A DNA stretch of 64,000 nt from an uncultured Acidobacteriota bacterium. GTDB taxonomy: Bacteria > Acidobacteriota > Blastocatellia > RBC074. The stretch spans positions 576,001-640,000 of the forward strand of contig CAWCKY010000001.1 in assembly GCA_963796275.1 (NCBI GenBank), read 5' to 3'. The position numbers were made by a program, and so were the translations under genes. Positions 11,184 through 55,684 of this stretch are shown in pieces (positions within the stretch are counted from its first letter, which is position 1; each line of letters starts with the position of its first letter). A model generated the notes under the pieces. It made no database searches and was not told the DNA's origin. It worked only from the letters and a program-made list of their open reading frames with translations.

Positions 11184-11185
11184 AT

Positions 11186-11245: not shown

Positions 11246-11270
11246 GTTGCGAAAGTGAGCTAGAGGAATT

Positions 11271-12979: not shown

Positions 12980-12996
12980 TTGGCACTCAGGTTGCA
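12980..12996 (+). promoter_or_regulatory. Sigma54 (-24/-12) promoter
   Basis: TTGGCAC-TCAGG-TTGCA is an exact match to TGGCAC-N5-TTGC, about 125 bp upstream of the CDS at 13120. Confidence 0.8.
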
Positions 12997-13119
12997 GCTG
13001 ATACGGCTGCAACCGTTGAGGACATTTGGATCTTGCGCCAAAACCGTCAGTGTTCAGTTAAGGTATGGTCTGCTGAATTGCCGGCGATTTTGGCGCAAGA
13101 ATTTTAAAGATAGATAACT

Positions 13120-38420: not shown

Positions 38421-38545
38421 TCGACGTCTTCCTCCCAGATTCCTCGTGAATTAGCATAACAGCCAGGAGAAATTCTACGCCGTTCACCTATCTCAGGCAA
38501 AATTTCCCCGATTAGTGTAGGGTAATTTTAGAGTTGTTCAGCTGC

Positions 38546-39595
38546 TCAGCTTCGCACGCGCCGCTGCGATTCCTCCGGAATGATATCCAGCAACAATCTC
38601 TCATTTCTCCTGATAATAGTAAGTTGCGATTTCACACCGACTTTCTGATCGGTCAGCAGGCGATGCAGATCGTCTATCCCCGCGATCGGCTGATCGTCAT
38701 AACCAATGATCAGATCGCCTTCCTGCAAACCGGATTTCAATGCGGGGCTCTCCTCTTCCAGCGAGACGACCAGTACAGCCGTTTGGAATTGCAAGTTGAA
38801 ATAACGTACCAGGCGCCGATGTAGCGGAACGACCTGACCCGCGACGCCGATATAACTGCGGCGAACTCGTCCTTCTTTGATCAGCTGCCCGGCGACAAAT
38901 TTCGCAGTATTGATCGCGATGGCAAAGCAGATGCCTTGAGCTGGCAGAATGACGGCCGTGTTGACGCCTATCACCTCACCGCGCGAATTGACCAGCGGCC
39001 CGCCCGAGTTCCCCGGGTTCAACGCAGCATCGGTCTGAATAATGTTATCGATCAACCGGCCGGAGGGCGTGCGCAGGCTGCGACTCAACGCGCTGACCAC
39101 ACCGGCAGTCACCGAGTACTGAAATCCATAAGGGTTGCCGATGGCGATAGCCAGCTGGCCGACCCGGATCTTCTGCGAATCACCGAGCGCGACCGGCATC
39201 AAATTGCCCAGATTGATGCGCACCACAGAAAGATCGGTATCCGGATCGTCGCCGATTAATTGCGCGTCGCTACGGCGCCCATCGGCCAGCGTCACACTGA
39301 TTTTCGATGCTCCGTGCGCGACATGGCTATTGGTCAGAATGAAGCCATCGGGAGTGAAAATGAATCCAGAACCACTGCCACCCGCATTGCCGCGCGGGCT
39401 GCTCGGATTGCGCCCCTGACCCTCGTGATTGACTTCGATGTTGACGACCGATGGATTGGCTCTTTCCGCAGCTCCGATTACGGCTTGCGAATATGCGTCG
39501 AGTATCTCGTCATCCGTCTGGGTGACGGATTCCGATATGCGATTCGGATGGATGTTTATGCCGTCGTCTGAAACAAAATGTGAATGATCATTCAT
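38546..39595 (-). CDS. HtrA/DegS-like serine protease with PDZ domain
   Basis: GSGF, TNSHV, QTDAALNPGNSGGPL, one PDZ domain; no signal peptide. Confidence 0.95.
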   Translation of the reverse strand: MNDHSHFVSDDGINIHPNRISESVTQTDDEILDAYSQAVIGAAERANPSVVNIEVNHEGQGRNPSSPRGNAGGSGSGFIFTPDGFILTNSHVAHGASKISVTLADGRRSDAQLIGDDPDTDLSVVRINLGNLMPVALGDSQKIRVGQLAIAIGNPYGFQYSVTAGVVSALSRSLRTPSGRLIDNIIQTDAALNPGNSGGPLVNSRGEVIGVNTAVILPAQGICFAIAINTAKFVAGQLIKEGRVRRSYIGVAGQVVPLHRRLVRYFNLQFQTAVLVVSLEEESPALKSGLQEGDLIIGYDDQPIAGIDDLHRLLTDQKVGVKSQLTIIRRNERLLLDIIPEESQRRVRS

Positions 39596-39683
39596 ATTTT
39601 TGATATAGCACCTGGAGGCGCTAATGTGAAGTAGGTACCGCGCAGTGTTATACTCACCACGCGGTAACTGGTGGAGGTTTGAT

Positions 39684-40064
39684 GTGAATGTCGCTGTGAA
39701 TAAAGACAGTAAAACTCCGGCGGAGATTACCCTTATCGTGATCGGGGGCCGGTGGAAAATCCCAATCCTCTATCACTTATTCCAGGGCGTGAAGCGCTTC
39801 TCCGAGTTGCAACATTCATTGGATGGGATCTCGCAAAAAGTCCTGACGCAGCAATTGCGCGAGATGGAGCGTCACGGTGTCGTCCATCGTAAGGTCTATC
39901 CTGAGGTGCCGCCCAAGGTCGAGTACTCACTGACCCCGCTCGGCGAGACGTTGAAGCCCGTTATCGAAGAGTTATGCAAATGGGGGACAAAGTTCGAAAT
40001 CGGCGAATTCGAAGCCGAAAAGATTGAATCGTACACAATGAACGTATCTCCGAAAGAAGATTAG
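39684..40064 (+). CDS. HxlR family transcriptional regulator
   Basis: IGGRWK, RFSEL, LTQQLREME, PPKVEYSLT; GTG start after GGAGG. Confidence 0.93.
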   Translation: MNVAVNKDSKTPAEITLIVIGGRWKIPILYHLFQGVKRFSELQHSLDGISQKVLTQQLREMERHGVVHRKVYPEVPPKVEYSLTPLGETLKPVIEELCKWGTKFEIGEFEAEKIESYTMNVSPKED

Positions 40065-40130
40065 CGCTGACACTTTGACTGCGATCGTTTAACTATGGGG
40101 GATTGCAGATCGGTCCCAATCCGCGATCAC

Positions 40131-41210
40131 TTACCATCGCTTGAAATTAAATCTGTCGAGTGTGATGCCGAGCCCGGTGGTAATCAGCAGGTCGTTATTC
40201 CTCGAGCCGAAGACCTGATTGCTGATGTAGCGATCGCTGACGATGATATCCCAGGTAAGCCACTTCGACATCTTTGTGATAACTGCCGAATCGAATGTGA
40301 TCCGATATTCTCCCGTATTACTCATATTCGGAAAGAGTTGAAAGCGCTGCTGTATTGAAACGCGATCTGAGAGTTTGAAAGTAAGCTCCTCTCCAACCAG
40401 CAACTCGCCGGAATTGCGAGTCACCCCGGTCGAGTATTTCTCCCGGTCGTACGCGCCGCCGCCGAAGACCTGAAATTGTGTCCGATCATTCTTGATGAAG
40501 TAATATCCGATGCCTCCGCCCGGTACGGCTCGTAAGTCCAGAAGCTGAATCTCATTGTAGTCGAAATCGGCGAAGCCGAAGGCCACCCATCTATCGGTGA
40601 GATTGTGTTCGTAGCGGCCACCCCCGTGGATTGTGTTGGCTGTCGTCTCGGTCACGCCGCCGCTGTTGTTCTTCGATTTGACGTAAGCCGCATAGAGGGT
40701 TGTCTTGTCCCGGTTCGTCTGGCGGCTCATAATTGTGTCAAATGATAATGTGGTGTCTCGGATAGTCCCCGTTGTCAGGCTGTAGCCAAGATTCATATCG
40801 GTATCCCATAAATCCAACCAGCTCGGGTGGAGATGCCGTTCGTATTCCTCCTGCTCGGGTTTTGATCGGATCGCCTGGACTTTGCCGGGCTCGAGCGAAA
40901 CCAATGCGGCGTCCCTGGTTTCAACCTCGTAGTTACCTCCTCTGGTCGCGACCCTTCCAGCTACCGTCTTTCCATCATCGAGCGCAAACCAGAGCGTTTG
41001 TTCAGATGTGATCTGCGTTACTACATCGGCCGATATATTGATCTCGCCGGCATAATCGGTCTTGATTGTCAGCGTTTTTCCATCTGATTTGACGATCATG
41101 CCCGAGATTCGATCGCCATTTTTCAACGTTACCTCGTCGGCTAGAATTCGCGCCCCCAATCCCGGCCAGAGCATACATATCGCCGCTAAAATTACTATTT
41201 TACAAGGCAT
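40131..41210 (-). CDS. DUF481 (YdiY-like) outer-membrane beta-barrel protein
   Basis: Signal peptide, DEVTLKNGDRISG N-domain, amphipathic beta-strands, GGGIGY. Confidence 0.8.
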   Translation of the reverse strand: MPCKIVILAAICMLWPGLGARILADEVTLKNGDRISGMIVKSDGKTLTIKTDYAGEINISADVVTQITSEQTLWFALDDGKTVAGRVATRGGNYEVETRDAALVSLEPGKVQAIRSKPEQEEYERHLHPSWLDLWDTDMNLGYSLTTGTIRDTTLSFDTIMSRQTNRDKTTLYAAYVKSKNNSGGVTETTANTIHGGGRYEHNLTDRWVAFGFADFDYNEIQLLDLRAVPGGGIGYYFIKNDRTQFQVFGGGAYDREKYSTGVTRNSGELLVGEELTFKLSDRVSIQQRFQLFPNMSNTGEYRITFDSAVITKMSKWLTWDIIVSDRYISNQVFGSRNNDLLITTGLGITLDRFNFKRW

Positions 41211-41372
41211 TGCCCCTCCCTTCATTAACAGAAAAACCGAGAATTATGGAAGGAAATTTTCAGTTCGGCCGGAGGATAGTGCGAGATATAGATATTAACC
41301 GTCAGATTCATATCTGTCTATCGGTCGGCATAAGCAGATTTTTCGGATTGCAAGCCCACTTTATCTAAAAAG

Positions 41373-41412
41373 ACAAAAATGTTATCTTTCACGCTCCTGG
41401 AGACATTTTTGT
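41373..41412. promoter_or_regulatory. Paired ACA-W4-TGT palindromes (putative activator sites)
   Basis: ACAAAAATGT (41373) and ACATTTTTGT (41403), 30 bp apart, between the DUF481 gene and the NifA-like gene. Confidence 0.55.
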
Positions 41413-41574
41413 CCAAGACGTTAAGCGGCGAAAGATATCGATAGCAGTGATGTTCGGGTGCCAGTATTGGCAGACATAACCGATGCTGAATAAAAGCACG
41501 AGGAGACAAAGCGGGCGAACAATATTGTTCTTTACTTTCTCTTCTTCTTTTTCCTGGTTCTAGCGGCAGAGGAG

Positions 41575-43107
41575 ATGATGATGGATGAATCGGCACAGAT
41601 AAGGAAGTTGACGGCGCTGCTCGACGTGAGCCAGGCGCTCGGTTCCACCTTAAATTTAAGCGAGGCTCTTGAAAACATTCTGGAAATTCTCGACCGAGAA
41701 CTCGGGATGAAGCGCGGCGCTATCGTAATGCTGGAAGCGAAAGGGGAGCTGAAGATCCAGTATGCTCATGGGATGAGCGAGGGTGAACGGCAACGCGGTC
41801 GCTATCGTCTCGACGAAGGCATAACGGGCAAGGTCGTATCATCAGGCAAACCTGTGGTTGTTCCACAGGTGAGCAGGGAGCCGCTGTTCCTCAACCGGAC
41901 GCGCAAACGCGATCCCAAACAGGAAGAATCCTTCATCTGTGTTCCGATCAAAAACCACCGCAAGACGATCGGCGCGCTTTCGATCATTTATCCGTTCAAA
42001 CAAAACAGGAGCTTCGATGATGCGGTTAAACTCCTCACGATCATAGCTTCGATGATTTCGCAGAGCCTCCGAATGGCGCAGATGGTTGAGCAGGAGAAAG
42101 CACAGCTGGTTGATGAGAATGCGCTGCTTAAGCGCGAACTGCAACAGAAATATGATTTCCGCAACATCATCGGTACGAGCAAAGAGATGCGCGAGATCTA
42201 TGATCAGATCGCGCAGGTCGCGCATACCAATACTACCGTGTTGATTCGGGGAGAGTCGGGCACGGGCAAAGAGCTGGTCGCGCACGCGATCCACTACAAC
42301 AGCCCGCGTTCAGCCAAACCTTTCGTTAAGGTTAATTGCGCGGCGCTCCCCGAATCATTGATAGAGTCGGAGCTCTTCGGTCACGAGAAAGGAGCTTTCA
42401 CCGGCGCCGTTGCGCGCAAAAGAGGGCGTTTCGAGCTGGCTGAAAGCGGAACGATGTTTCTGGACGAAATCGGTGATCTTTCGCCGGCATTACAAGTCAA
42501 ATTGCTGCGCGTTCTGCAGGAGCGCGAATTCGAGCGGGTCGGAGGTACCGAGACGATCCGCGTCAATGTCAGGATGATAACGGCGACGAATGTAGACCTG
42601 GAACAGGGGGTGCAGGATGGGCGTTTCCGCTCCGACCTGTATTACCGACTGAATGTCTTTTCGATATATTTACCGACATTGCGCGAGAGAAAGACCGACA
42701 TCTTATTGCTCGCCGATCATTTCCTCGAAAAATACGCTCGTCAAAACGGTAAACGTATCAAGCGTATTTCGACGCCCGCCATCGATATGCTGATGAGCTA
42801 TCACTGGCCAGGCAATGTGCGTGAACTCGAGAATGTCATAGAACGGGCGGCGCTCGTCTGCGAAGGAAACGTCATTCACGGGTATCATCTGCCCCCCACC
42901 CTCCAGACCGCTGAAGGCTCTGGAACAGTTACAAAGATGAGCCTGGATCAGGCGGTCAGCGCATTTGAAAAGGACCTGATTCAGGATGCTTTGAAAACAG
43001 CGCGCGGCAACCGTGCGCGCGCTGCCAGAATGCTCGATACGACCGAACGCATTCTCGGTTATAAGGTCAAGAAATACGAGATTGATTCCAGACGCTTCAA
43101 AGGATGA
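41575..43107 (+). CDS. GAF-AAA+-HTH sigma54 activator (NifA-like)
   Basis: GAF domain ([22 protein letters not shown]), [25 protein letters not shown]. Confidence 0.93.
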
Positions 43108-43224
43108 AGTCAGCTCATTCTGCGTACCAACTCTGAACATTCACTATGAGCTCGCATAAATGCTGAAGTATTAATCGGGACCGCCTTTGTTTCATAAATA
43201 AATTCCCGGCACTGATGAAAAGCG

Positions 43225-43264
43225 ACAATAATGTTGGGAAAATCGAGCGAGGCTACATTTTTGA
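43225..43264. promoter_or_regulatory. Paired ACA-W4-TGT/A sites (putative upstream activator sequence)
   Basis: ACAATAATGT (43225) and ACATTTTTGA (43255), again 30 bp apart, about 100-130 bp upstream of a sigma54 promoter. Confidence 0.55.
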
Positions 43265-43356
43265 TGTGGGCTAAAAAATCGTTATCGCGCCTGGGCTTGT
43301 CTATTTTCCGCTGTTTTTGCTGACATTTAATGGACCAAACCGGGGAAACGCTCGGA

Positions 43357-43373
43357 CTGGCAAGCCAGTTGCT
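43357..43373 (+). promoter_or_regulatory. Sigma54 promoter for the small ORF-glnA unit
   Basis: CTGGCAA-GCCAG-TTGCT, correct GG-N10-GC spacing. Confidence 0.75.
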
Positions 43374-43444
43374 ATAAAACATGTTTACGTATCGTTCAGG
43401 AAGAAGATTTTAGAGGGAGGGGGCACTACTATAAGTGTGAATAC

Positions 43445-43669
43445 ATGAGTGGAAATTACAGACAAAAAAACAACAGTTATGGACAGCTCATGGAATTTTT
43501 GTTGAGCGAACGCCATCGTTATGAATCCGAAGAGGAATTCAGAGCATACGCTCTTGGGGAGGTTCGACGTTTCATCAGCGAGTTGCGACGGCTTGATATA
43601 GAGCTGACGATGCGGCCGAATTTTCTTGAGAAATCACCATTGGATTTCAACGCACCTGATAAGCCATAA
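43445..43669 (+). CDS. Small hypothetical protein (74 aa), paralog of 50676-50933
   Basis: 30/46 identical core with the second copy, many synonymous differences; downstream of a sigma54 promoter, upstream of glnA. Confidence 0.8.
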   Translation: MSGNYRQKNNSYGQLMEFLLSERHRYESEEEFRAYALGEVRRFISELRRLDIELTMRPNFLEKSPLDFNAPDKP

Positions 43670-43788
43670 AAGCTTACGGTGACGAAGAAGCCCTGCTGGA
43701 TTTCTTCAGGCTTTTCCGAAGAGTTTCTTTCCAATCCCAATAATTTAATTTTGGCCTGGGAGAGTCCCAGCGCCCAAGGAGGCAATGA

Positions 43789-45213
43789 ATGACCCCAAAA
43801 GATGTAATAAAGCTAGCCAAAGAGAAGGGCATACAAATTGTAGACCTACGATTTATTGATATGCCCGGGACATGGCAGCACTTCTCGATTTCGGTTGGAG
43901 AATTGTCTGAAAACCTCTTCTCGGAGGGGATTGGTTTTGACGGTTCATCAATTCGAGGATTCCAGGCGATCAATGAATCGGATATGCTGCTCTTTCCGGA
44001 TCCGACAACCGCCACCATCGATCCCTTCACCGAGCATCCGACGTTGGTACTGATCTGCGATGTGAAAGACCCGATTACCGGCGCGAATTACACGCGCGAT
44101 CCGCGATTTGTAGCCAAGAAAGCCGAGGAGTATGTCAAGAAGACAGGTCTGGCCGATACGGTATACATTGGGCCAGAGCTGGAATTCTTCATCCTCGATA
44201 ATGTCCGCTTCGACCAGAGTTACAACTACGGTTTTTATTATCTCGACTCAGAAGCAGCGGCCTGGAATTCGGGAAGAGAAGGAACGCCCGAGAGGCCGAA
44301 CCTGGGCAATCGTCCGCGCTATAAGCAGGGTTATTTCCCCGTGCCGCCCGATGACCATATGCAGGACATACGCTCTGCGATGCTGCTGGCGCTCGAAAGC
44401 GTCGGCGTGAGAATCGAAGTACACCACCACGAGGTGGCGACCGGCGGTCAGACCGAAATCGACATGCGGTTCGACACATTAACCCGGATGGCTGACAAGG
44501 TGCTCTGGTACAAGTACTGCACCAAGAACGTTGCGAAGAGATACGGTAAGACGGTGACATTCATGCCCAAACCGCTCTTCCAGGATAACGGTTCCGGCAT
44601 GCATACGCACCAGTCGCTGTGGAAGGGTGAGAAGAATATCTTTTACGAGAAGGGGGGGTATGCCGATCTCTCGCAAACCTGTCTTTACTACATCGGCGGC
44701 ATTCTCAAGCACGCGCCGGCTCTGTGCGCATTGATCGCGCCGACCACCAACTCCTATCGCCGTCTGGTGCCCGGCTACGAAGCACCGATCAACCTGGCCT
44801 ACAGCCAACGAAACCGATCGGCGGCTGTGCGCATTCCGACCTACTCGAAAGCCGAGAGAGCCAAACGCATCGAGTTTCGTACTCCGGACCCGACCTGCAA
44901 TCCGTATCTCTCCTTCGCCGCTTGCGTAATGGCGGGGCTGGATGGGATTGCCAACAAAATCGATCCGGGCGATCCGATGGACAAGGACCTCTATGAATTG
45001 CCGCCGGAAGAGGCCGCGGAGATCAAGCAGCTTCCGGGATCGCTCGATGAGGTGCTCAATGCATTGGAGACTGATCATGCCTTCCTGCTGAAGGGCGATG
45101 TCTTCACTAAAGATTTGATCGAGACCTGGATCGAGTACAAACGGAAGAACGAAGTGGATCCGATCCGTCTGCGTCCACATCCCTGGGAATTCGCGCTCTA
45201 TTTCAACGTCTGA
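43789..45213 (+). CDS. glnA: Glutamine synthetase type I
   Basis: FDGSSI, HHHEVA, FMPKP, NGSGMH, NRSA, RIEFR; adenylylation-site Tyr in DKDLY; RBS AGGAGG. Confidence 0.98.
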
Positions 45214-45217
45214 AGCT

Positions 45218-45294
45218 GCACAAACTGGAAGCAAGAACGGCAAAATGAAGTAGAAAAGTTTGCTTCCTTTTGCCCTTTTGCTTCCAGTTTTTGC
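45218..45294. terminator. Long imperfect hairpin between convergent genes
   Basis: AAACTGGAAGCAA...GGCAAAA pairs with TTTTGCC...TTGCTTCCAGTTT. Confidence 0.65.
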
Positions 45295-45296
45295 GC

Positions 45297-46895
45297 TTAT
45301 TTCGTCTCTTTCGTTTCCTCCTCGCTTCTCCTCTTCAGGCGCGAAGATTCTGGCGCCCCGATGATAATTTCGAATATTCCATTCACATGGTTGGTATGAA
45401 GTTGATAGTCGCGTAGGAATTGCTCGCTTGCGCTCAATTGATCGTCATCGCAATAACCGAGCATACGGGAGAGAGCATTCAAGGGGCCCGCTTTTACCGG
45501 TATCGAATGCGTCTGCGCATCATCGACCATCTGCAGCTTATTCTCCACATCCCGCAGGAAAATGTAGGCCGCAGTCAGCCTGATCATCTCGTCAGCCGAG
45601 ATCAGCGCTTGAGCGCAGAGCGCATCGAGGGCTTTCAGCGTGCTGCGTCCGCAAATCTCCTGGTAGCTGCTCCCGAATGTTAGTTGAAGCGCCTGTACGA
45701 TGAGTTCGATCTCGCGGATTCCCCCGAATCCCAATTTGACGTTTCGGTCCCGCTCGCGGCTGGCAGTCATCTTTCTGTCGATCTTTTTCTTCATAGCGCG
45801 GACCTCGTTGAGGGGTTCGAGGCCGAAAGGGCGTTCATAAACAAAAGGAGCGACCATGGCCAGAAATTGCCGGCCGAGCCGGGCGTCGCCAGCCACCGGA
45901 TATGCCTTGAGCAAAGCTAATCTCTCCCACGTCTCACCCCGCGCATAATAATATCGCCGGAATCCATCGAGCGAATATGCGATGTTTCCCATTCGGCCAT
46001 CGGGCCGTAACCTCAAATCGACGCGATACAAATAGCCTTCGTTTGTGATGTCGCTTAAAGCCAGGGTGACTCTTTGCGAGAGCTGGCGATAGTACTCGGT
46101 GCTCGAGATGGGTGCGGTCTGATTCGAGTCATCATCGTCAGCTGCGTGTAGATAGATCAGGTCGACATCGGAGCTGAAGTTGAGCTCACCTCCGCCGAGT
46201 TTCCCCATTCCCAGGATGGTGAACCCCCCCAAACTTCTTCTGGAGATTCCGGATTCTCGAAACAGCGCGCCTTCACAAATCCGCAGGGCGGCCGAGATCA
46301 GCGCTTCAGCGAGTAGCGAGAGAGCAGACAGCGTTTCTTCAACCGGGCAAAGACGCATGAGATCGCGCACTCCGATGTGCAGCATTTCCCTACGTTTGAA
46401 AGCGCGCAGGAAATCCAATTGCTTCTTTTCTGACGCGATACTCTGCAGTCCGCGCAAGACATCGCGGGCGATCTCCCGCTTTTTACGTTTCTGGTAGAGC
46501 GTCTGAGGATCAGTCAGCCAGTAGAGATAGACCGGATCCCTGATGAGAATTTCGGCCATATGCTGGCTGCCTCCGAAAGTCTTGGCGAGAATTTCCAGGC
46601 TGCGCGGGGATTCATTAAGGTAGGAAAACAAGCGCGTTTTGTTGACGGCGGAGCGCGCGAATCTTTCGAAATGATTGAGCGCCTGGTCCGGGTCGGCCGA
46701 TTGCGACGCGCACAGGAGCAAATCTTCCAGGATATTGGCCAGTAGCTGGCGCGCCGTGGGATCATCCGCCATCGCCTGCAGATTGGCGTCAGCTTTAGTT
46801 GGCTCTTTAAATCCGTAAGGACCCAGCAAAGCTTCCGCCTGCTGCGGATCGAGGCGTGGCGCCAGCAGTAGATCCTTTAAGTTCTTGGGCGACAT
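45297..46895 (-). CDS. glnE: Single-domain GlnE (adenylyl-removase-like half)
   Basis: GMGKLGGGELNFSSDVDL, YRVDLRLRPDG, WERLALLKA, NVKLGFGGIREIE; only one nucleotidyltransferase module; likely start MSPKNL. Confidence 0.85.
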   Translation of the reverse strand: MSPKNLKDLLLAPRLDPQQAEALLGPYGFKEPTKADANLQAMADDPTARQLLANILEDLLLCASQSADPDQALNHFERFARSAVNKTRLFSYLNESPRSLEILAKTFGGSQHMAEILIRDPVYLYWLTDPQTLYQKRKKREIARDVLRGLQSIASEKKQLDFLRAFKRREMLHIGVRDLMRLCPVEETLSALSLLAEALISAALRICEGALFRESGISRRSLGGFTILGMGKLGGGELNFSSDVDLIYLHAADDDDSNQTAPISSTEYYRQLSQRVTLALSDITNEGYLYRVDLRLRPDGRMGNIAYSLDGFRRYYYARGETWERLALLKAYPVAGDARLGRQFLAMVAPFVYERPFGLEPLNEVRAMKKKIDRKMTASRERDRNVKLGFGGIREIELIVQALQLTFGSSYQEICGRSTLKALDALCAQALISADEMIRLTAAYIFLRDVENKLQMVDDAQTHSIPVKAGPLNALSRMLGYCDDDQLSASEQFLRDYQLHTNHVNGIFEIIIGAPESSRLKRRSEEETKETK

Positions 46896-47062
46896 ACTGT
46901 CTGATAAGATAATGAAGTTTGGAAGACGAAACAAATAATAATTATATGGAGGAATGAATCACGACAAAAATCACAAATGTTGCCTGTAACCGCAAATATT
47001 ATCTTTGGCATCGGTTTTTTGTCCTGTTGTGAGACTTCTTCCTCGAATACTATAGAACACGA

Positions 47063-49312
47063 ATGGTGAACGCTGAAATCAAGAGAGTGATCGAAACATT
47101 CTGTCCGGAAATCGACAAAGATTTTGTCGGGGAATTCTTTGCTCGCATGGATGAAGATTATTTTGCCACTTTCTCTCCGGAAGAGATCGCCACCCATATA
47201 CGTATGTCGCGCGGGCTCGATCCGGAGCATCCGGTGCGATGCCTGATTACGCCGCGCGGTGACGGCGAATTCGATATCATCATCGTCGGTTTCGACTACC
47301 TTTCCGAGTTTTCCATCTTCTGCGGCTTAATGTCGGCGTTCGGTCTCGCGATTCAATCCGGCAATAGCTATTCGTTTGCCAGGAATACGTCCGATGCCAC
47401 AAGCGCGCGAACGGCCCACCGATCTCCTAGAAGGAAGCGGCCATCGTCGAGCCGGATCGTAGATGTCTTCACCGTCAGCCTGGACCAGGATGAGGTATTC
47501 GATGAATCCACACAATCCCGCTTCGCGGAGCAACTGCAAGCGCTCGTCCGGCAGCTCGCTACAGGATCGTCCGACCAGGTTAGGGATCGTCTCAATCGCC
47601 TTCTGACCGATCGTCTTGAGAAGATGGATGGGCAATTGAGCGGTCTGCTCTCTCCCATCGATGTCCAATTCGATAACCTGGCTTCGCCGGACTGGACCCT
47701 GATGAACGTGCGCTCCGAGGATGCCTACGCCTTCCTCTATGCTTTCTCGAATGCGCTCGCGATGCGCGGAATTTACATACACAAAGTCAGGATCGAAAGC
47801 GTCCGGAACGAAGTGAGAGATCAGTTTTTCATCGCCGACAGATGGGGACGCAAAATCGAAAGTGAACGAGAGCAGGAGCAACTGCGCACGGCGGTAGTGC
47901 TGATCGAGCAATTCACACGGTTCTTGCCGTCAGCGCCGGACCCGGCTCGGGCGATGCGCCACTTCGATCAGTTTCTGGATAAGATCGCGGAGGAGCAGAT
48001 TTCCGACGAGTCCGTAGCCTTTTTCACCGGCGATGAGGGAATGAACCTGCTGGCGCATCTGCTGGGCAGCAGCGATTTCCTCTGGGACGAGTTCCTGCGC
48101 TTCAAAGAAATACAACCGATCCTGCCGATTCTGAGAGACTTCTCTCGCATTGAACTGGATCCCGGTAAACAATCGCTGTTCTATCACCTCGACGCACAGC
48201 TTGCCCGTGCCGCCACTTTTGAGGAGAAGAAGAAGGGCGTCAACCAATTCAAGGACCGCCAGGTCTTCCTGATCGATATAAAGCACCTACTGGATCCGCA
48301 GACAACCCTGGTGGATTTCTCTCAAGCGCTGACCCACCTGGCCGAGGTGATTCTGCATAAAGCTGCTGAACTTTGCCTCTCGCAACTGGTCGAAGAGTAC
48401 GGAGAGCCCGTGTTGATAAACGGAACCAAGTGCAGGTTTACGATCTGCGGGCTGGGCAAGTTCGGCGGGTGCGAAATGGGATATGCATCCGATCTTGAGA
48501 CGTTGTTTGTTTACGAAGGACCGGGGCAGACGCGCGGAGATAAGGCGATAGATAATGGGATTTTCTTTGAGCTATTGGTGCAAAAGATCGCAGAGTTCAT
48601 CGAAGCCCGTGAGAAAGGGGTCTTTCACATCGATCTCAGGCTCAGACCGCACGGAAAAGCCGGCGCGCTGGCGAGCCCGTACGAACAGTTGGCGGCTTAT
48701 TACAGTTCAACAGGCGAAGCTGCCCCTTTTGAGAGGCAGTCGCTCATCAAGCTGCGGTGGGTCGCCGGAGATGAAGCTCTCGGACGTAGAGTGGAAGCCC
48801 ATCGGGACAGTTACAGCTATAGTGGGGAGACATGGGATTGGGAGTACGCCCTCCATCTGCGCGGCAGGCAAGAGCGTGAACTGGTCAGGGCCGGTGAGGT
48901 GAATGTGAAATATAGTCCCGGTGGAATCATCGATATAGAGTACACCGCTCAGTATCTGCAAATCATCTTTGGGAAAGATCAGGGCCTCAGGACGGCCAAC
49001 ACGATGGAGGCGTTGGACGAGCTCAACCGTTTGCAAATCATCGCTCGAAGCGATCACGGTGAATTACAGACCGCCTATATTTTCTTGCGCCGGCTAATCG
49101 ATGCGCTCAGGCTGGTGCGCGGCGATGCCAGCGACCTCGTGCTGCCGCACGAGTCTTCAGAGGAATATAAATCGCTCGCTCGAAGAATGGGCTACCAGGA
49201 GCGAGACCGAAGAAAGAGCGCCGAGCGATTGGCCGCGGATATCAGACAGTTAATGAAAAAAGTCCGGTCACATTATCTGAAATGCATACAAATTAAGGCG
49301 CAGCCGGGTTAG
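47063..49312 (+). CDS. glnE: GlnD-like tandem ACT domains fused to a GlnE adenylyltransferase-like half
   Basis: N-terminal MDEDYFATFSPEEIATH linker plus two ACT-like units (FDNLASPDWTLMNVRSED...IHKVRIE...RDQFFI); C-terminal GLGKFGGCEMGYASDLE, IDLRLRPHG, VKYSPGGIIDIEY. Confidence 0.85.
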   Translation: MVNAEIKRVIETFCPEIDKDFVGEFFARMDEDYFATFSPEEIATHIRMSRGLDPEHPVRCLITPRGDGEFDIIIVGFDYLSEFSIFCGLMSAFGLAIQSGNSYSFARNTSDATSARTAHRSPRRKRPSSSRIVDVFTVSLDQDEVFDESTQSRFAEQLQALVRQLATGSSDQVRDRLNRLLTDRLEKMDGQLSGLLSPIDVQFDNLASPDWTLMNVRSEDAYAFLYAFSNALAMRGIYIHKVRIESVRNEVRDQFFIADRWGRKIESEREQEQLRTAVVLIEQFTRFLPSAPDPARAMRHFDQFLDKIAEEQISDESVAFFTGDEGMNLLAHLLGSSDFLWDEFLRFKEIQPILPILRDFSRIELDPGKQSLFYHLDAQLARAATFEEKKKGVNQFKDRQVFLIDIKHLLDPQTTLVDFSQALTHLAEVILHKAAELCLSQLVEEYGEPVLINGTKCRFTICGLGKFGGCEMGYASDLETLFVYEGPGQTRGDKAIDNGIFFELLVQKIAEFIEAREKGVFHIDLRLRPHGKAGALASPYEQLAAYYSSTGEAAPFERQSLIKLRWVAGDEALGRRVEAHRDSYSYSGETWDWEYALHLRGRQERELVRAGEVNVKYSPGGIIDIEYTAQYLQIIFGKDQGLRTANTMEALDELNRLQIIARSDHGELQTAYIFLRRLIDALRLVRGDASDLVLPHESSEEYKSLARRMGYQERDRRKSAERLAADIRQLMKKVRSHYLKCIQIKAQPG

Positions 49313-49359
49313 ATGTTCGGTCGCCGGAAATCAATCGAGAACAAATTTTTGTGCCCTTC

Positions 49360-50397
49360 CTACCATTCGCCAGCATCGACCACATCGACCTCCACGGCGT
49401 TCGAACTGTGACCCTCGCAATAGACCTGCACTGTGTTGGAGCCGATATCGAGCCCGGGTGGGACAGCGATATTGATCTGTGCCGAGCCGGCCTGATCGAT
49501 CTCACTGACAAAACAGGGGCGCACACCATAACCTCCGATCACAACCTTCACGTTTGTGCGAGTCGCCGTTTCTGGCATTCTCTTCGCCCAGATCGCGAAA
49601 ATCGCATTTCTGCCGCGGCGCGGGAAGTAATGCTTGAAAGTACATGCATTATTCACATCATCGATAAAGATCGAGGGCGCGGGTTGAGCCGGTAGGTCGG
49701 TGAATTGGCGGTGAGCCTTTAAGGTCGATCGCGTCTTTTCGCGGTGTATCACATCTATCTGCGCGAACCCGGCGGTATCGGCCATATTTACGAGGCACTG
49801 CGTATTTGGCCCCCACCAATTATCGTATTGCCCGCCCAATTCATCGAACGGATAGAACTCCATGACCGGCGACGTTGCATCGAGCATACCATCGATAACG
49901 TATGATTGAATTATCGCTACATCGCGCGTAACTTCACAGACGCGCTGCAGACCCAGCAATGGATGTTGCAGATGGTAGAGCACGCCCAGGAAAATGACGA
50001 TATCGAAAACGCCGAGATTCTCGCGGCTGACTTCATAGACGCTCAGCTCGCGAAATTCAACGCGCGATTTGAGCTCGCTATGCGCCTCGAAGAATTTGGC
50101 GGGGCGGACGCAGTCGACTGCCACCACCTCGGCACCGTGCCGTTCAGCCGTGAACGAATAAAAACCATCCCAACAGCCAATGTCGAGCACACGCTTCCCG
50201 GTAAGGTCATCCGGTAATTTGAAATTGTCATAATGAGATTGAAGTTCATCGAGTTTGCGCGCGCCCGGAGTGATTCGGCCGCCTCCGAGATCGATGCTGT
50301 GCCACCAACCGGTTTTCGCCAGTTCTTCGGTATTTTCTCCCGCTACTTTTTCATGTGCTTCCCGCATCGCGAGATCGTCTTTTAATTGTGTCGCCAT
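49360..50397 (-). CDS. SAM-dependent methyltransferase (CmoB/DUF1698-like) with Ig-like C-terminal domain
   Basis: WWHSIDLG, VLDIGCWDG, FLGVLYHL, NWWGPN; C-terminal QINIAVPPGL. Confidence 0.85.
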   Translation of the reverse strand: MATQLKDDLAMREAHEKVAGENTEELAKTGWWHSIDLGGGRITPGARKLDELQSHYDNFKLPDDLTGKRVLDIGCWDGFYSFTAERHGAEVVAVDCVRPAKFFEAHSELKSRVEFRELSVYEVSRENLGVFDIVIFLGVLYHLQHPLLGLQRVCEVTRDVAIIQSYVIDGMLDATSPVMEFYPFDELGGQYDNWWGPNTQCLVNMADTAGFAQIDVIHREKTRSTLKAHRQFTDLPAQPAPSIFIDDVNNACTFKHYFPRRGRNAIFAIWAKRMPETATRTNVKVVIGGYGVRPCFVSEIDQAGSAQINIAVPPGLDIGSNTVQVYCEGHSSNAVEVDVVDAGEW

Positions 50398-50593
50398 AAT
50401 GTTTCTCGTGTGGATGATGTCTGATAAAGAAAGCTAATTTACCTCAACGGTTAAGTCGAATCAATTCCGCAGCGGTGCCGAGTTATTGTAAAAGGCTGGC
50501 GTTTAGATGGCAGATACATTATTGTTGCCGGAGAGAACGGAGTACATAAAAAACTGAAAAGAAGTGATATCAAGACTAGACCGTGCAGGGCAA

Positions 50594-50609
50594 GGGCACT
50601 AACGTCGCG
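50594..50609 (+). promoter_or_regulatory. Degenerate sigma54-like promoter before the second small ORF
   Basis: GGGCAC-TAACG-TCGC keeps GG-N10-GC with two mismatches; an ACATTATTGT site lies upstream at 50516-50525. Confidence 0.35.
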
Positions 50610-50675
50610 GAGAGTGATGTCTGCAACTCATTCGACGCTCTCTTAAACCCATGAACATTATTTTAGGAGGACTTG

Positions 50676-50933
50676 ATGCACGACTACGAAAATGAAAAGA
50701 GTGAAACTACTGAACCTAAGGACCAAAGCGAGTTGATGAGCTTATTGCTGAAAGAGCGTTCGAAATTTTCGTCTGAGGAGGAATTTAAGGCGTACGCGGT
50801 AGATGAAGTGCGGCGCTTCATCAATGATCTGCGTTCGATCAATATCGAGCTTACGATGCGGCCAACCTTCAATAAGATTCCGCTCTCGCGGCATAGCGTC
50901 ACCGAAAAATTGAGCTCACATCGAGAAAACTGA
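50676..50933 (+). CDS. Small hypothetical protein (85 aa), paralog of 43445-43669
   Basis: Perfect RBS AGGAGG 5 nt before ATG; shared core SEEEFxAYAxxEVRRFIxxLRxxxIELTMRP; stop 9 nt before ilvD. Confidence 0.85.
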   Translation: MHDYENEKSETTEPKDQSELMSLLLKERSKFSSEEEFKAYAVDEVRRFINDLRSINIELTMRPTFNKIPLSRHSVTEKLSSHREN

Positions 50934-50942
50934 CTTAAAAAT

Positions 50943-52715
50943 ATGGCTTTTGATCCAGAAGATAATAATAACAACATCACTAACGGATCGGAGCGGGCGC
51001 CGGCGCGTTCTTATATAAAAGAAAAAAGTGATTTAAACATGTCATTCGATCCCAAACATCGCAGTCACATAATCACGAATGGCCGTGATCGGGCGCCGGC
51101 GCGCTCGATGTTCAAGGCCATAGGGTTTACCGATGAAGACCTGGCCAAACCGATTATCGGTGTCGCCCATATGTGGATTGAGACGATGCCCTGCAACTTC
51201 AATCACCGCGATCTGGCAGTAAAGGTCAAGGAGGGCATCCGCGCAGCCGGCGCCACGCCGATGGAGTTCAACACGATTTCGATCAGTGACGCGGTGACGA
51301 TGGGCACTGAAGGTATGAAGGCTTCGCTGGTCAGTCGTGACCTGATAGCCGATTCGATCGAACTTGTCGGGCGCGGTTATATGTTCGATGCCGTGATAGC
51401 GATTGTCGGCTGCGACAAGACGATTCCGGGCGCGGCGATGGGGCTGATCCGTTTGAACGTGCCGGGGCTGATCTTATATTGCGGTTCGATAGCTCCGGGA
51501 AATTTTCGCGGTCGCGACATAACAATTCAGGATGTCTTCGAGGCAGTCGGCGCTAATGCGGCGGGCAAGATCACAGACGCGGATCTTTTTGAGATCGAGA
51601 ACGTCGCTTGTCCCGGAACGGGCGCCTGCGGCGGTCAGTATACTGCCAACACAATGGCGATGGTGATGGAGTTCATCGGCTTGTCTGTCATGGGAACGGG
51701 CAGCGTTTCGGCGACCGACCCGCTCAAAGAGAAGACCGCGATTGAGTCGGGCAAGTTCATTGTCGACCTTCTGCGTCGAGGCGTCAGGCCTAGCGATATA
51801 CTGACTCGCATATCATTCGAGAACGCGATAGCCGGAGTCGCAGCCACCGGCGGTTCGACAAATGCTGTGTTGCATCTGCTCGCTATGGCGCGCGAAGCGG
51901 GGATCGATCTGACGATCGACGATTTCGACGCGATCAGCAAGCGTACGCCGCTCATAGCCGACCTGAAGCCGGGCGGAAAGTACACGGCGATCGATCTGGG
52001 GAAAGCGGGCGGCATCGGGCTCGTAGCGCGGCGCCTGGTCGAAGCCGGTTGTATCGATGGGAATCAGGTCACCGTGAGCGGGCTGACCATCGCACAGGAG
52101 ACCGAACTGGCAGACGAAACGCCCGGCCAGACCGTCGTTTTCTCTGTCGATAAACCTCTCAAACCCAACGGCGGGCTGGTAATCTTGAAAGGCAATCTCG
52201 CGCCGGAAGGCGCCGTCGTCAAAGTTGCCGGCCACGAACGCCCGTATCATCGCGGTCCTGCGCGCATCTTCGAGCGCGAAGAGGATGCGATGGAGGCGGT
52301 GACGGGCAAGCAGATCAAATCCGGAGATGTCGTCGTCATAAGATACGAAGGTCCGAGAGGCGGCCCGGGTATGCGTGAGATGCTCGGTGTAACGGCGGCG
52401 ATAGTGGGCGAGGGGCTGGGCGAAGAAGTAGCTTTGATGACCGACGGGCGTTTCAGCGGCGCCACCCGCGGGTTGATGGTCGGCCACGTAGCCCCTGAAG
52501 CGGCAACCGGCGGGCCAATCGCCGCGCTACGCGAGGGCGATATGATCGTATTCGATATCGAAGCCCGCAAGCTCGAAGTCGAACTCTCTGATGAGGAGAT
52601 CAAGCGAAGGTTGTTAGAATGGAAACCGCCCGCGCCGCGTTATAGGTCAGGAGTTTTTCAAAAGTACGCCGCGCTTGTTTCATCGGCCTCGGAAGGGGCG
52701 ATCACGAGAGGATGA
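50943..52715 (+). CDS. ilvD: Dihydroxy-acid dehydratase
   Basis: PCNFN, CDKT, GACGGQYTANTM, GGSTNAVLHL, GGPGMREM, TDGRFSG; second in-frame start at 51039. Confidence 0.97.
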   Translation: MAFDPEDNNNNITNGSERAPARSYIKEKSDLNMSFDPKHRSHIITNGRDRAPARSMFKAIGFTDEDLAKPIIGVAHMWIETMPCNFNHRDLAVKVKEGIRAAGATPMEFNTISISDAVTMGTEGMKASLVSRDLIADSIELVGRGYMFDAVIAIVGCDKTIPGAAMGLIRLNVPGLILYCGSIAPGNFRGRDITIQDVFEAVGANAAGKITDADLFEIENVACPGTGACGGQYTANTMAMVMEFIGLSVMGTGSVSATDPLKEKTAIESGKFIVDLLRRGVRPSDILTRISFENAIAGVAATGGSTNAVLHLLAMAREAGIDLTIDDFDAISKRTPLIADLKPGGKYTAIDLGKAGGIGLVARRLVEAGCIDGNQVTVSGLTIAQETELADETPGQTVVFSVDKPLKPNGGLVILKGNLAPEGAVVKVAGHERPYHRGPARIFEREEDAMEAVTGKQIKSGDVVVIRYEGPRGGPGMREMLGVTAAIVGEGLGEEVALMTDGRFSGATRGLMVGHVAPEAATGGPIAALREGDMIVFDIEARKLEVELSDEEIKRRLLEWKPPAPRYRSGVFQKYAALVSSASEGAITRG

Positions 52716-52838
52716 GGGAGTGCGGGTGCGCGCTCTCTCCCACTTATCAAACTCGGCTTCCATCGGTTCAGCGAGCCTGTCAGGGTCAATCCGGATAACG
52801 GGAGGACGCGCGCTATATTTATGGGCGCGTTCGGTGAT

Positions 52839-53945
52839 TTACTCCTGGTTTAATGCATCGACCGGATCCTGGCTGGCCGCCCGCAATGCGGGATAGATCG
52901 CTCCAACCAACCCGCTCATCAACCCGCCCGCTATCGCAAAAAAAATATAACCGGCTTCGAGCACAATTTGTGTTCCGATTGTTTTGAGAAGGATGGTCCG
53001 GGCGATCAGGGAGACCGTTAATCCACTGGCTACGCCGATCGTGCTTATCATCAGGGATTCTTTGATGAAGACTCCGGCGATGAATTTTTTAGATGCGCCC
53101 AGCGATTTGAGTATTCCGATTTGCCGTGTTCGTTCCATAACCGAGGAGTACATCGTCAGCGAGATGACGAGTAGACTGATGATAATGGCGAGTCCCGCCA
53201 CGACGTCGAGAAATATATTGAAGCTCTGATAACCGTTGGCGAAGAGCTTCGGCAGATCGCGGGTAAAGATTATGCGGAGATCCGGAAAACGCTCGATGAT
53301 CCGGCGTGCAACCGCTTCCTGCTCATTTTCGTTCCTGCATTTCACCATGAACATAGAGCATTTACCTTCGGCGCCCAGTTCCTCCTGCATCGTCGACAAG
53401 GGTATCATCGTTCGCGCTCCGGTCTCCGGTTCGTAGATACCCGCGACCTTGAACTGCCGGTTGAATATGCTGATGCAGTCTCCCGGGGTCGTATGGTGGA
53501 GGGCAGCGTACTTTATATCGACGATCACGGCATCTCCAGACTCAGGTAGAGCGCGGCCTTCCACGACGCGGATCTTCGTCGCATTGGTATAATCCGCAAA
53601 ATTCACACCGTCGATTTGACGTAAACCGAGTCCGTTATCGCCTTTCATCTCGAGATGTTGCCCGACGGGCGTGATCGCCGCGATGCCGGGCACTTCTCCT
53701 ATCCGGTCCATCAATTCGATCGGCAGCGATAACGGCAGCGAAGCCGCCGAAATGCCGAACTGCTGATGATGATAGACGAGTAATTCGACTCCGGTATTGG
53801 TATCCCGCTCTCCTCTGTTACGCAGCATACCGCGCACCAGCCCGACAGTGAGGATGACGAGGATGATTCCGACTGCGACACCGATAATGCTTGCTGCCGT
53901 TCGTCCCGGGTGATGCGTGAGATTGGCAGTAATCAAGGATTTCAT
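52839..53945 (-). CDS. ABC transporter permease (MacB/FtsX/LolE family)
   Basis: One TM + periplasmic domain + ERTRQIGILKSLGA + three TM + YPALRAASQDPVDAL. Confidence 0.92.
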   Translation of the reverse strand: MKSLITANLTHHPGRTAASIIGVAVGIILVILTVGLVRGMLRNRGERDTNTGVELLVYHHQQFGISAASLPLSLPIELMDRIGEVPGIAAITPVGQHLEMKGDNGLGLRQIDGVNFADYTNATKIRVVEGRALPESGDAVIVDIKYAALHHTTPGDCISIFNRQFKVAGIYEPETGARTMIPLSTMQEELGAEGKCSMFMVKCRNENEQEAVARRIIERFPDLRIIFTRDLPKLFANGYQSFNIFLDVVAGLAIIISLLVISLTMYSSVMERTRQIGILKSLGASKKFIAGVFIKESLMISTIGVASGLTVSLIARTILLKTIGTQIVLEAGYIFFAIAGGLMSGLVGAIYPALRAASQDPVDALNQE

Positions 53946-55235
53946 AATTTTTCGTGTGCCATCTTTTTCGAAGACTTGTTCGATTGGTGAAGGTTGATCT
54001 TGCGCGCAATACGCGTCGCGGGAAATTCTGCGTGAAGTTCGTCGTAGAGATCAAAGAATTGTGCGGTTACCGCCTCCCAAGTATATCGCCGTGAAGTCCA
54101 GAACGCACGAGCCAACCTGTCTTTGCGGACGGCGGGATCAGCGAAGACTGAATGCACGGCGGCGACATAGGCCTCTCCGTTGGCTTCTGCCAACCAGCTA
54201 TTATTTTCGTCAGCGTAAGAGAGCACGCCGCCCGATCTGGGCGCGACGAGCGGCAATCCGGCGGCCATCGCTTCGAGAGGTGCGATCCCGAATGGCTCGC
54301 GCGGATTGGGATGAACGAAAGCATCGCAGTTAGCATATAGATCTACCAATGCGGCGCGATTACGTATATGGCCGAGAGAATAGACGCGTCCCGGCGCGCG
54401 GAGCCGCGCCTCATCGGCGAACCAATCGGCGAGCGGGCCGTCGCCCGCAATAATCAGCCGGTAATCACCCGTGCGTTCACGCGCGAGCTTCTCCATCATT
54501 TCAAGAAGGAGAGCGATATTTTTCTCTTGCGATAAACGACCGGCATAGAGCAGAAGCTTGGTTCGCCGGTCGCCCTGAAACAACGAAATGAGCTTTTGTC
54601 TGCTCGTTTCGGACCTGCGGCCTGAGACGTAGTCGGCCACATCTGCGCCCATCGGACGAACATGGACGTCCCTTTTCATGGCGGGCGACCATCGCTTCGC
54701 GCAATTCATCCGCGGTGTATTGTGAGTTGGCTATGTGATAATCGAAGAGCGGAATGTATAAATTGCCGAGATATAGCCTGGAAAGGCGTTTGCCCAATCT
54801 GTTGTCTGTGAGAAATGCGCTGACATTATCGTCCATCCGTTCGCAGCTCATCCCGACGAGCACCGGTCGGCGCAAGCCGGAGATCCAACGCTCGCGCAGA
54901 AACCCGGCGAGCCAGCACAGAGCATACTTATCGCAAACTTCAACCAGATCAGGTGTTTCATCGCGCAGGATACTGTTAAGTTCTCCGTTAAAGGCATAAG
55001 TATGAGGCAACAGAAGACGGTACCGACGGTCGAAGATGGGTGCCCGCGGCGCTTTGATATGATAGATAGCTCCGTGCTCGCCGATTTTTTCCATCCTTGT
55101 CCGATCGCCCGGCACGACCAGCCGCATCGAGCGACCATGACGATTGGCCGCATTGAGCAACGCACGATAGAACGTGCTGATGCCACCCGAGGTGGTGTGG
55201 TAGGCGTTGGTAATGTGAAGCGTTTTTATGGACAT
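53942..55235 (-). pseudogene. GT4 glycosyltransferase interrupted by a 1-nt frameshift
   Basis: N-half (HITNAY..SGGI) in ORF 54501-55235 and C-half (YAGRLSQEKN, EPFGIAPLEAMAAG) in ORF 53942-54709; removing one base from the A4 run at 54673-54676 restores HERDVHVRPMGAD. Confidence 0.8.
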
Positions 55236-55240
55236 CGGAA

Positions 55241-55357
55241 GATAATTGATAATTGATAGTTGATAGTTGATAGTTGATAGTTGATAGTTGATAGTTAGTA
55301 ATTTGTAGCTGATAATCAGTAGTTGATAGTTAGCTATTGATAGTTAATTGATAGTTA
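55241..55357 (+). repeat. Tandem heptamer array (TTGATAG)n
   Basis: About six perfect consecutive copies plus degenerate flanking copies. Confidence 0.95.
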
Positions 55358-55414
55358 TATGAAGAGTGTTGCATGTAAATAAAAGATTCCTTGAAATCAA
55401 CGTTATCGATTCTG

Positions 55415-55563
55415 AGCGCCAGAGGCGCGGGGATGTTTATAGAACTCGTTCAATCACATTTGCAAGCTCCGGAGGAGCGACATATAGGCATTCATTTGTC
55501 GCTCCTCCGGAGCTTGTGAGACTTGGGTAATCGAATGCTATATACATCGGGCTCCTCCGGATC
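55415..55563. mobile_element. REP/REPIN-like palindromic element
   Basis: Perfect 20-bp inverted repeat CAAGCTCCGGAGGAGCGACA (55463-55482 / 55497-55516) nested in an outer degenerate pair GCGCCAGAGGCGCG..ATGTTTATAG / CTATATACAT..GCTCCTCCGG. Confidence 0.65.
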
Positions 55564-55641
55564 CAATCAGAAACTGTTGATAATGACCGGCTTTAAGTTA
55601 CACCGCCCTTAGTTTAATAACCGAGATAACAAATTATACGT

Positions 55642-55679
55642 ACTATCAACTATCAATTATCAACTATCAACTATCAACT
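55642..55679 (-). repeat. Inverted heptamer array (CTATCAA)n
   Basis: About five copies, reverse complement of the 55241-55357 array. Confidence 0.9.
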
Positions 55680-55684
55680 GCTTT

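Follow-up and report, generated by a model that had tools for sequence, protein, structure and literature searches.

The 64,000-nt stretch of DNA analyzed here (the window; positions 576,001 to 640,000 of contig CAWCKY010000001.1, from an uncultured Acidobacteriota bacterium) carries two genes of one small-protein family, here called A and B, set among genes for glutamine synthetase (GS) and its control. Gene A (43445-43669, plus strand) begins with ATG, codes for 74 amino acids (aa), and is the first cistron of a predicted sigma54 transcription unit; gene B (50676-50933, plus strand) also begins with ATG, codes for 85 aa, and has conserved upstream blocks of its own. The open reading frame (ORF) listing extends the frame of B by one codon, to TTG at 50673, and an AGGAGG sequence at 50665-50670 is placed 5 nt before the B start codon. 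No Shine-Dalgarno sequence is present at normal spacing before A, whose upstream DNA offers no more than a G-rich run at a distance of about 20 nt. An earlier note on this DNA had reported both ORFs at these coordinates, where they are indeed present, together with a shared 46-aa core containing 30 identities and a set of synonymous codon differences between the two; the core is recovered in the BLASTP alignment of A with B, and the codon differences are seen in the DNA alignment.

A and B are paralogs, with 33 identities in 54 aligned residues (BLASTP, E 8e-22). In a nucleotide comparison, 92 nt of the coding core can be aligned, with 71% identity, and the flanking DNA gives no alignment, which excludes a repeated DNA element. 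A scan of species-representative genomes recovered at least seven related loci (L001 to L007), so that with the window there are nine copies in eight genomes of one lineage. A family hidden Markov model (HMM) applied to all stop-to-stop frames of at least 50 aa in the window and the seven related loci finds these nine copies only, with E values of 2e-24 or better, the next match having an E value of 0.16. Neither tblastn with both proteins nor the HMM reveals a third copy in the 64 kb; a candidate at 29257-29343 (tblastn E 0.010) lies inside a 311-aa ORF, is invisible to the HMM, and was rejected.

Selection was assessed by the Nei-Gojobori method on A, B, and the seven orthologs (nine sequences, 36 pairs). 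The proportion of synonymous differences (pS) ranges from 0.60 to 0.94, compared with 0.18 to 0.45 for nonsynonymous differences (pN), and pS exceeds pN in 36 of 36 pairs; for A and B themselves, pS is 0.94 and saturated, and pN is 0.38. The synonymous rate (dS) is saturated in 21 pairs, and in the other 15 the ratio of nonsynonymous to synonymous rates (dN/dS) is 0.09 to 0.38, not near 1. The view in the earlier note that selection acts on the protein is therefore upheld, also by the dN/dS check it had proposed. Antisense ORFs overlap both genes (43519-43785 over A and 50684-50980 over B), and because pS exceeds pN in the A and B reading frames, these are interpreted as shadows. By these measures, A and B are real genes under strong purifying selection. 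A reading in which the element is not a protein at all, the likeness arising instead from a common cis-regulatory element (RNA or DNA) or from a leader peptide of arbitrary sequence, could draw on the location of both window copies in the 5' regions of enzyme genes. We regard it as scarcely credible, given the excess of pS over pN in every pair, the restriction of DNA likeness to the reading frame, and the retention of start positions among the orthologs, three of the seven (L001, L005, and L006) having a clear Shine-Dalgarno sequence. Moreover, in the relatives it is a terminator, not an enzyme gene, that lies 3' of the gene, and within 38000-56000 the only Rfam matches at E<=1 are microRNA-type ones attributable to chance, all under gathering scores, which were rejected as candidate RNA elements.

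The earlier note did not recognize the family, and our searches agree with it. In Pfam, A has no match at E<=10, B has two chance matches at that threshold that fall far under the cut-off, and a scan of 64 family members (E<=0.01) finds no family common to more than one member; in NCBIfam (E<=10), A has no match and B has two chance matches below cut-off. PHROGs gives nothing significant (best E 0.012, function unknown), PADLOC gives no match, and a profile search of PDB sequences has a best E value of 0.16. The predicted structures behave similarly: Foldseek comparison of the A and B models with the PDB returns no matches at E<=0.001 (best E 5.4 and 6.2), and in the ESM Atlas, B has no usable match and family member P0056 has only generic small helical look-alikes with template modeling (TM) scores of 0.56 or less. 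A full-text literature search found nothing on such a small protein. As judged by sequence and predicted fold, the family is without a known relative.

The family is nonetheless well populated. A word-indexed search with B identified 31 clusters (at 90% identity) at E<=0.01 among 34 candidates, all of 76-100 aa, three of which have organism names, all Blastocatellia or Acidobacteria. A profile search of 1.84 billion representatives (50% clustering) identified 47 at E<=0.001, including 21 at E<=1e-10; one of the 47, P0071 (598 aa, six matched stretches), is a TPR-repeat protein and was discarded as a false positive. A profile built from distant members added 148 further clusters, and among the 120 of these that were listed, six are named: three Blastocatellia, two Acidobacteria, and one 'bacterium HR08', which is the single named cluster record in the family not assigned to Acidobacteria or Blastocatellia. 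In total, there are approximately 180 clusters at 90% identity, and from these sequences the family is lineage-specific and previously undescribed, with proteins of about 60-85 aa and a conserved core of roughly 50 residues.

In a tree of 64 members, two clades of 37 and 27 rows are separated with support of 98/90. The 37-row clade contains all nine copies of known genomic context, and it is the clade to which context information applies, the 27-row distant clade having no placed copies. The N-terminal core of about 55 aa is conserved, and the tails vary between subclades and are kept within them; in the A-type group the core is conserved and the tail is not. The distant clade includes a well-supported group ending ...DWNxLKIGCE, and a GCE C terminus is present in 12 of the 46 representatives fetched (P0054, P0057, P0062, P0063, P0066, P0068, P0069, P0072, P0073, P0074, P0076, and P0078), which end in ...(R)DWNxLK(I/V)GCE. 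Conservation of this tail suggests a docking or modification site. It also recalls a precursor of a ribosomally made peptide, with the core as conserved leader, or a carrier modified at its C-terminal residue, in which the tail would be the functional part, as would the combination of a conserved core of about 55 aa with subclade-specific tails and the presence of more than one copy in at least one genome (that of the window). This is very improbable: the eight neighborhoods contain no gene for a radical SAM enzyme, cyclodehydratase, lanthipeptide synthetase, or ATP-grasp ligase, NCBIfam gives no Nif11 or NHLP leader model at E<=10, the A-type tail is variable while its core is conserved, and a Foldseek match to a precursor of ribosomally synthesized and post-translationally modified peptides (RiPP) is insignificant (E 6.7, prob 0.01).

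The genes around A suggest how it is expressed. It is preceded by a gene for a NifA-like sigma54 activator (41575-43107, plus strand) with Pfam GAF, Sigma54_activat, AAA_lid_14, and HTH_8 matches, the last a Fis-type helix-turn-helix (HTH), and is followed by glnA (43789-45213, plus strand), which encodes a type I GS (GSI) with Pfam Gln-synt_N and Gln-synt_C domains and an NCBIfam GlnA equivalog score of 674 bits against a cut-off of 429. The gap between A and glnA contains no terminator-like fold (z −0.16). Between the activator gene and A, a candidate sigma54 (−24/−12) promoter at 43358-43373 (plus strand; TGGCAAGCCAGTTGCT) has one mismatch to TGGCACN5TTGCW, and the promoter motif, TGGCAAGCnAnTTGCT, is found between the activator and the next gene in all six activator-bearing loci, with 13 of 16 bases invariant and one further base common to five of the six. 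Two GACAATTTTGTC-like sites, located some 125 and 155 nt 5' of the inferred start of transcription, are likewise conserved in six of six. In the window, upstream site 1 is at 43224-43235 (plus strand; GACAATAATGTT, family consensus GACAATTTTGTC), which places it about 154 nt upstream of that start, and upstream site 2, the second conserved block in the six-promoter alignment, is at 43253-43264 (plus strand; CTACATTTTTGA, consensus CGACAATTTTGT). This layout, with a −24 GG and a −12 GC separated by N10, upstream sites, and an adjacent activator gene, has all the sequence features of a classic enhancer-dependent promoter, and the adjacent activator presumably binds both upstream sites. The clear sigma54 promoter that the earlier note had placed before A and glnA is thus confirmed by its conservation.

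The activator tops the NCBIfam nifA equivalog cut-off (562.7 bits against 528.85), yet the window is without nif genes, and the conserved target is a GS gene; an automatic label of 'nif-specific NifA' would be misleading. Divergent from the activator is a gene for a DUF481 outer-membrane-type protein (40131-41225, minus strand; Pfam PF04338, E 3e-31). A DUF481 counterpart is present in L002 at 407-1483, also divergent from the activator (Pfam E 3e-36), and L004, L006, and L007 have candidate counterparts at the same position, namely ORFs of 355-380 aa with similar N termini. The DUF481 gene forms the conserved left border of the module and may itself be nitrogen-controlled as part of it. On the other side of the unit, a long hairpin at 45217-45296, for which Rfam gives only chance microRNA-like matches, lies between glnA and the convergent gene for the N-terminal half of GlnE, and is probably a bidirectional terminator. 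Elsewhere in the window there is a second sigma54 system (9102-14556), with a histidine kinase (9102-11183), an NtrC-type response regulator (11271-12731), and a perfect sigma54 promoter, TGGCACTCAGGTTGCA, at 12981-12996, ahead of a phosphodiesterase-family gene (13120-14556).

Comparison of the window with the related loci shows that the family keeps the same company in differing gene orders. All nine copies among the listed matches adjoin genes of the GS system (GS or GlnE), and they do so in three arrangements. In the first, represented by A, the small gene precedes the GSI gene. In the second (L002, L003, L004, L006, and L007), it follows an activator gene, with an ortholog at the matching position in each locus, and glnN, which codes for a type III GS (GSIII) of 730-793 aa as called. 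In the third, represented by B, L001, and L005, it follows the gene for the C-terminal half of GlnE, with gaps of 264 nt in L001 and 415 nt in L005. Six of the nine copies are therefore inside a GS unit with a sigma54 promoter and an activator gene, and three are behind the GlnE C-terminal half; by its location, the sigma54 promoter drives A then glnA in the window and glnN then the small gene elsewhere. The L004 contig (CAYYDG010000017.1) is labeled 'uncultured Heliomicrobium sp.' (Bacillota), and its gene order, promoter motif, and small protein match the Acidobacteriota loci; it is probably mis-binned.

In all five GSIII loci, hairpins with z scores of −3.4 to −5.1, several with a U-run, are predicted between the glnN stop codon and the small gene (L002, 5808-5950; L003, 5947-6009; L004, 5865-5976; L006, 5877-5982; L007, 5838-5958). 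By acting as partial terminators, or through effects on processing or stability, they may determine how much GS is made relative to the small protein. A further hairpin, GC-rich and with a U-run, is found 3' of the small gene in five of the seven loci (L001, L002, L003, L005, and L007), and the genes beyond vary, including those for a short-chain dehydrogenase, a major facilitator superfamily (MFS) transporter, permeases, and ilvD; in L001, the ortholog and ilvD are separated by a perfect hairpin of great length and, beyond it, two genes for MacB-type permeases. The earlier note proposed that the paralogs head amino-acid biosynthetic units. This stands for A, which precedes glnA, but in five of the seven relatives the gene follows glnN behind a hairpin, and the link to ilvD is local. 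The small gene in the relatives comes after glnN or the GlnE C-terminal half, mostly with a terminator-like hairpin at its 3' side, and so closes a transcription unit; the heading of a biosynthetic unit is a peculiarity of the source genome, not a property of the family.

What does persist is the link to nitrogen genes that the earlier note proposed, seen here as adjacency to GS or GlnE genes for all nine copies in the eight genomes. In the tree, copies linked to GSIII are intermingled with those linked to GlnE, indicating that the position of the gene has shifted and the association with GS or GlnE has been kept. Read from these gene maps, the linkage is conserved yet rearranged, and conservation extends to the sigma54 promoter with its upstream sites. 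An obvious concern is that the small protein has an unrelated function, for example as a structural, chaperone, or stress protein, and that its adjacency to GS genes reflects inherited gene order within the class. The restriction of the data to eight genomes of a single lineage would fit such an account, as would the varying downstream neighbors and the derivation of all contexts from one clade, with the distant clade unplaced. We consider it quite unlikely, as the association has persisted through no fewer than three rearrangements, with the gene placed 5' of GSI, 3' of GSIII, or 3' of the GlnE C-terminal half, in copies that are interspersed in the tree and saturated at synonymous sites between most loci, which exceeds the usual extent of passive synteny.

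Between glnA and B, GlnE is encoded by two divergently transcribed genes; the same split is present in L005, and the C-terminal half is seen in L001. In the window, the N-terminal half (45297-46934, minus strand) has GlnE and GlnD_UR_UTase domains and corresponds to positions 78-452 of the 946-position bifunctional GlnE model, and the C-terminal, adenylyltransferase-type half (47063-49312, plus strand) corresponds to positions 551-808. Residues 17-277 of the C-terminal half match positions 615-844 of the GlnD model, the ACT region, with an E value of 1.2e-19, and the presence of this GlnD-like region of about 280 aa on an adenylyltransferase half suggests direct glutamine sensing. A class I methyltransferase gene (49360-50397, minus strand) lies between the GlnE C-terminal half and B and is missing at that position in L001 and L005; L005 has GSI and the GlnE N-terminal half upstream as in the window, without the methyltransferase.

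Downstream of B is ilvD (dihydroxy-acid dehydratase; 51039-52715, plus strand), with a start assigned by homology within a frame that is open from 50943. The B stop codon is 9 nt from the ATG at 50943, and the first 96 or so nucleotides of ilvD are duplicated in frame, such that the long ORF repeats …FDP…ITNG…RAPARS… twice; the segment at 50943-51038 (plus strand), aligned to 51039-51134 and to the ilvD start of L001, is a degenerate tandem duplicate of the ilvD 5' end. As the NCBIfam ilvD models start aligning at residues 37-52 of the long frame, the true ilvD start is probably the ATG at 51039. The tandem copy immediately after B also places B at a rearrangement junction. The degenerate sigma54 promoter that the earlier note described before B and ilvD does not hold up: in the DNA preceding B and the genes at the corresponding position in L001 and L005, no GG-N10-GC site with two or fewer mismatches is found, and a TGGCAG...TTGTTGC string before B was rejected because its spacing is wrong. 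These upstream regions do share other conserved blocks, none of which fits the sigma54 motif. On the gene orders compared here, the adjacency of B to ilvD is local to the source genome, and the conserved neighbor at the B position is the GlnE C-terminal half.

Predicted structures are informative as to the type of protein involved. The AlphaFold2 model of B, built with 58 aligned sequences, has a mean predicted local distance difference test (pLDDT) score of 73.9, with residues 21-60 averaging 93-95. It consists of a short helix (residues 19-26) and a long helix (residues 34-55) forming a two-helix hairpin, followed by a confidently placed extended segment that spans the invariant I-E-L-T-M-R-P sequence; the N terminus and tail are of low confidence. 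The A model folds similarly, with helices at 14-21 and 29-49, a mean pLDDT of 76.4, and values of about 90 or more at residues 11-50. Positions that are invariant or nearly so throughout the family are, in B numbering, M21, L24, F37, and D51-L52-R53. The isoelectric point (pI) is below 7 in 54 of 64 members (median 6.1), and this mostly acidic character argues against nucleic-acid binding. The small acidic helical hairpin, with its unpaired strand, resembles a module for binding proteins or for self-pairing rather than a nucleic-acid binder. Prediction of a complex between two GlnA subunits and residues 13-64 of A, using alignments and without controls, scored 0.00 in both runs (mark 0.32) and weighs neither way.

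From its linkage, the family is probably part of nitrogen control. The interpretation that we favor, with a confidence that sits at the midpoint when GS and its adenylyltransferase are taken jointly as the possible targets, is that the small protein is a protein-binding modulator of GS control that would act on one or the other. In such a scheme, the NifA-like activator would fire, presumably under nitrogen limitation, and the small protein would be made together with GS, in lower amount; it would then bind GS or the adenylyltransferase and tune post-translational control of GS. The hairpin after glnN in all five GSIII loci and the poor ribosome-binding site of A point to the lower dosage. We infer induction by nitrogen limitation, a sub-stoichiometric dosage, action through protein binding, and the target itself.

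Several considerations weigh against this proposal. It rests on sequence and gene order, and the eight genomes are of one lineage, so that synteny could be partly inherited rather than selected; the context survey draws on nine copies, all from the 37-row clade of A and B. Copies linked to GSI, GSIII, and GlnE are very alike even though GSI and GSIII differ greatly, which is awkward for a direct GS binder and agrees with a partner that every one of these genomes conserves; the activator, GlnE, and PII are examples. Co-transcription with GS is opposite to the logic of the small cyanobacterial GS-inactivating factors IF7 and IF17, which are produced under nitrogen excess, making a simple inactivating factor unlikely. 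Finally, a search of 8000 candidates of 171-2000 aa for fusions or longer forms, which could identify a partner, found none, although this is weak evidence.

The likeness of the copies bears on a second candidate target. A feedback modulator that binds the GAF or AAA+ domain of the NifA-like activator, damping or sharpening its output, would have precedents in PspA, which modulates PspF, and HrpV, which modulates HrpS. The elements that are constant in the six sigma54 units are the activator, the upstream sites, the promoter, and the small gene, with GS type and gene order varying; the activator is highly conserved, in keeping with similar small proteins from different contexts, and the hints of low dosage suit a scarce target. 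Nonetheless, three of the nine copies are behind the GlnE C-terminal half, outside of a sigma54 unit and without a sigma54 promoter, and the closeness to the activator is explained if the small gene simply belongs to the activator's target operon. Pfam and NCBIfam scans give no likeness to known anti-activator families. Overall, feedback on the activator seems doubtful, if more plausible than an unrelated function. At about the same low level as the latter, we place a Blastocatellia-specific protein for the transfer of nitrogen signals, which would physically connect the NifA-like activator with the condition of either GS or the glutamine-sensing ACT-adenylyltransferase. If this were correct, transcription would be tied to GS status in a third way, unrelated to PII/PipX and GS/GlnR, which serve that role elsewhere.

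Modulation of GS control by the small protein would have wider implications. Acidobacteriota are among the most abundant soil bacteria, and our literature search found nothing in print on the control of nitrogen assimilation in this phylum. The window contains an unusual control island, in which a NifA-like GAF activator would act on GS through a conserved sigma54 promoter, GlnE is split and has a GlnD-like ACT half, and a small-protein family is embedded. Should GS, GlnE, or the activator prove to be under its influence, the small protein would join the short list of small-protein GS regulators as a new, independently evolved example, and would provide an entry point to nitrogen control in an ecologically dominant and poorly studied phylum. 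A small, well-conserved family with a confidently predicted core also makes the proposal easily testable. By analogy with what has been described elsewhere, the novelty is in a lineage-specific small protein in nitrogen control, small-protein regulation of GS as such being already known.

The nearest known systems are functional analogies only. The cyanobacterial IF7 and IF17 (gifA and gifB) are likewise small, lineage-restricted, and tied to GS control. According to one account, the N-terminal part of IF17 is a DUF4278 domain, the gif genes are regulated oppositely to glnA, and IF7 action depends on arginines that bind GS (PMC6316151). DUF4278 is not matched in the Pfam scans of A and B (E<=10) or of the 64 members (E<=0.01). 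Unlike the gif genes, copy A by its gene organization shares a sigma54 unit with glnA, with no terminator between them, and in contrast to the arginine-dependent IF7, the new family is mostly acidic, a distinction drawn from the description of IF7; it is also linked to both GSI and GSIII, unlike IF7 and IF17. The archaeal sP26 of Methanosarcina mazei, at 23 aa, is reported to interact with GS as part of nitrogen regulation; stable binding to GlnA1 could not be reproduced in structural work (PMC11957540). The new family differs from it, by description and not by sequence comparison, in having 60-85 aa and a predicted folded core.

The glnRA operon of Bacillota provides a parallel in gene order, in that a small regulator gene is directly before glnA and co-transcribed with it, as A is predicted to be. 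GlnR and TnrA are MerR-type DNA-binding proteins. GlnR takes GS itself as its nitrogen sensor (PMC9249791). The new family differs from GlnR and TnrA in that Pfam gives no match to MerR or any other HTH model, the proteins are acidic, and the gene is mostly 3' of GS in the relatives. A different parallel is offered by activator-linked regulators, as the genes for PspA, HrpV, and NifL adjoin or belong to the regulon of the activator that each protein controls. The Pfam and NCBIfam scans give no homology to these proteins; like them, the small gene is in the target unit of the activator in six of nine cases, and unlike them, three copies are outside it.

The PII proteins (GlnB/GlnK) and the cyanobacterial PII partner PipX offer a further comparison. 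The P-II domain is about 112 aa, trimeric, and of ferredoxin-like fold, and the new family differs from PII and PipX in its predicted helical hairpin, which is neither ferredoxin-like nor Tudor-like, and in giving no match to P-II or PipX models in Pfam or NCBIfam; no PII gene is present in the 64-kb window. Both are small signal-transfer proteins that join nitrogen status to GS, GlnE, and activators, and it is GS, GlnE, and a NifA-like activator that make up the classic set of PII targets.

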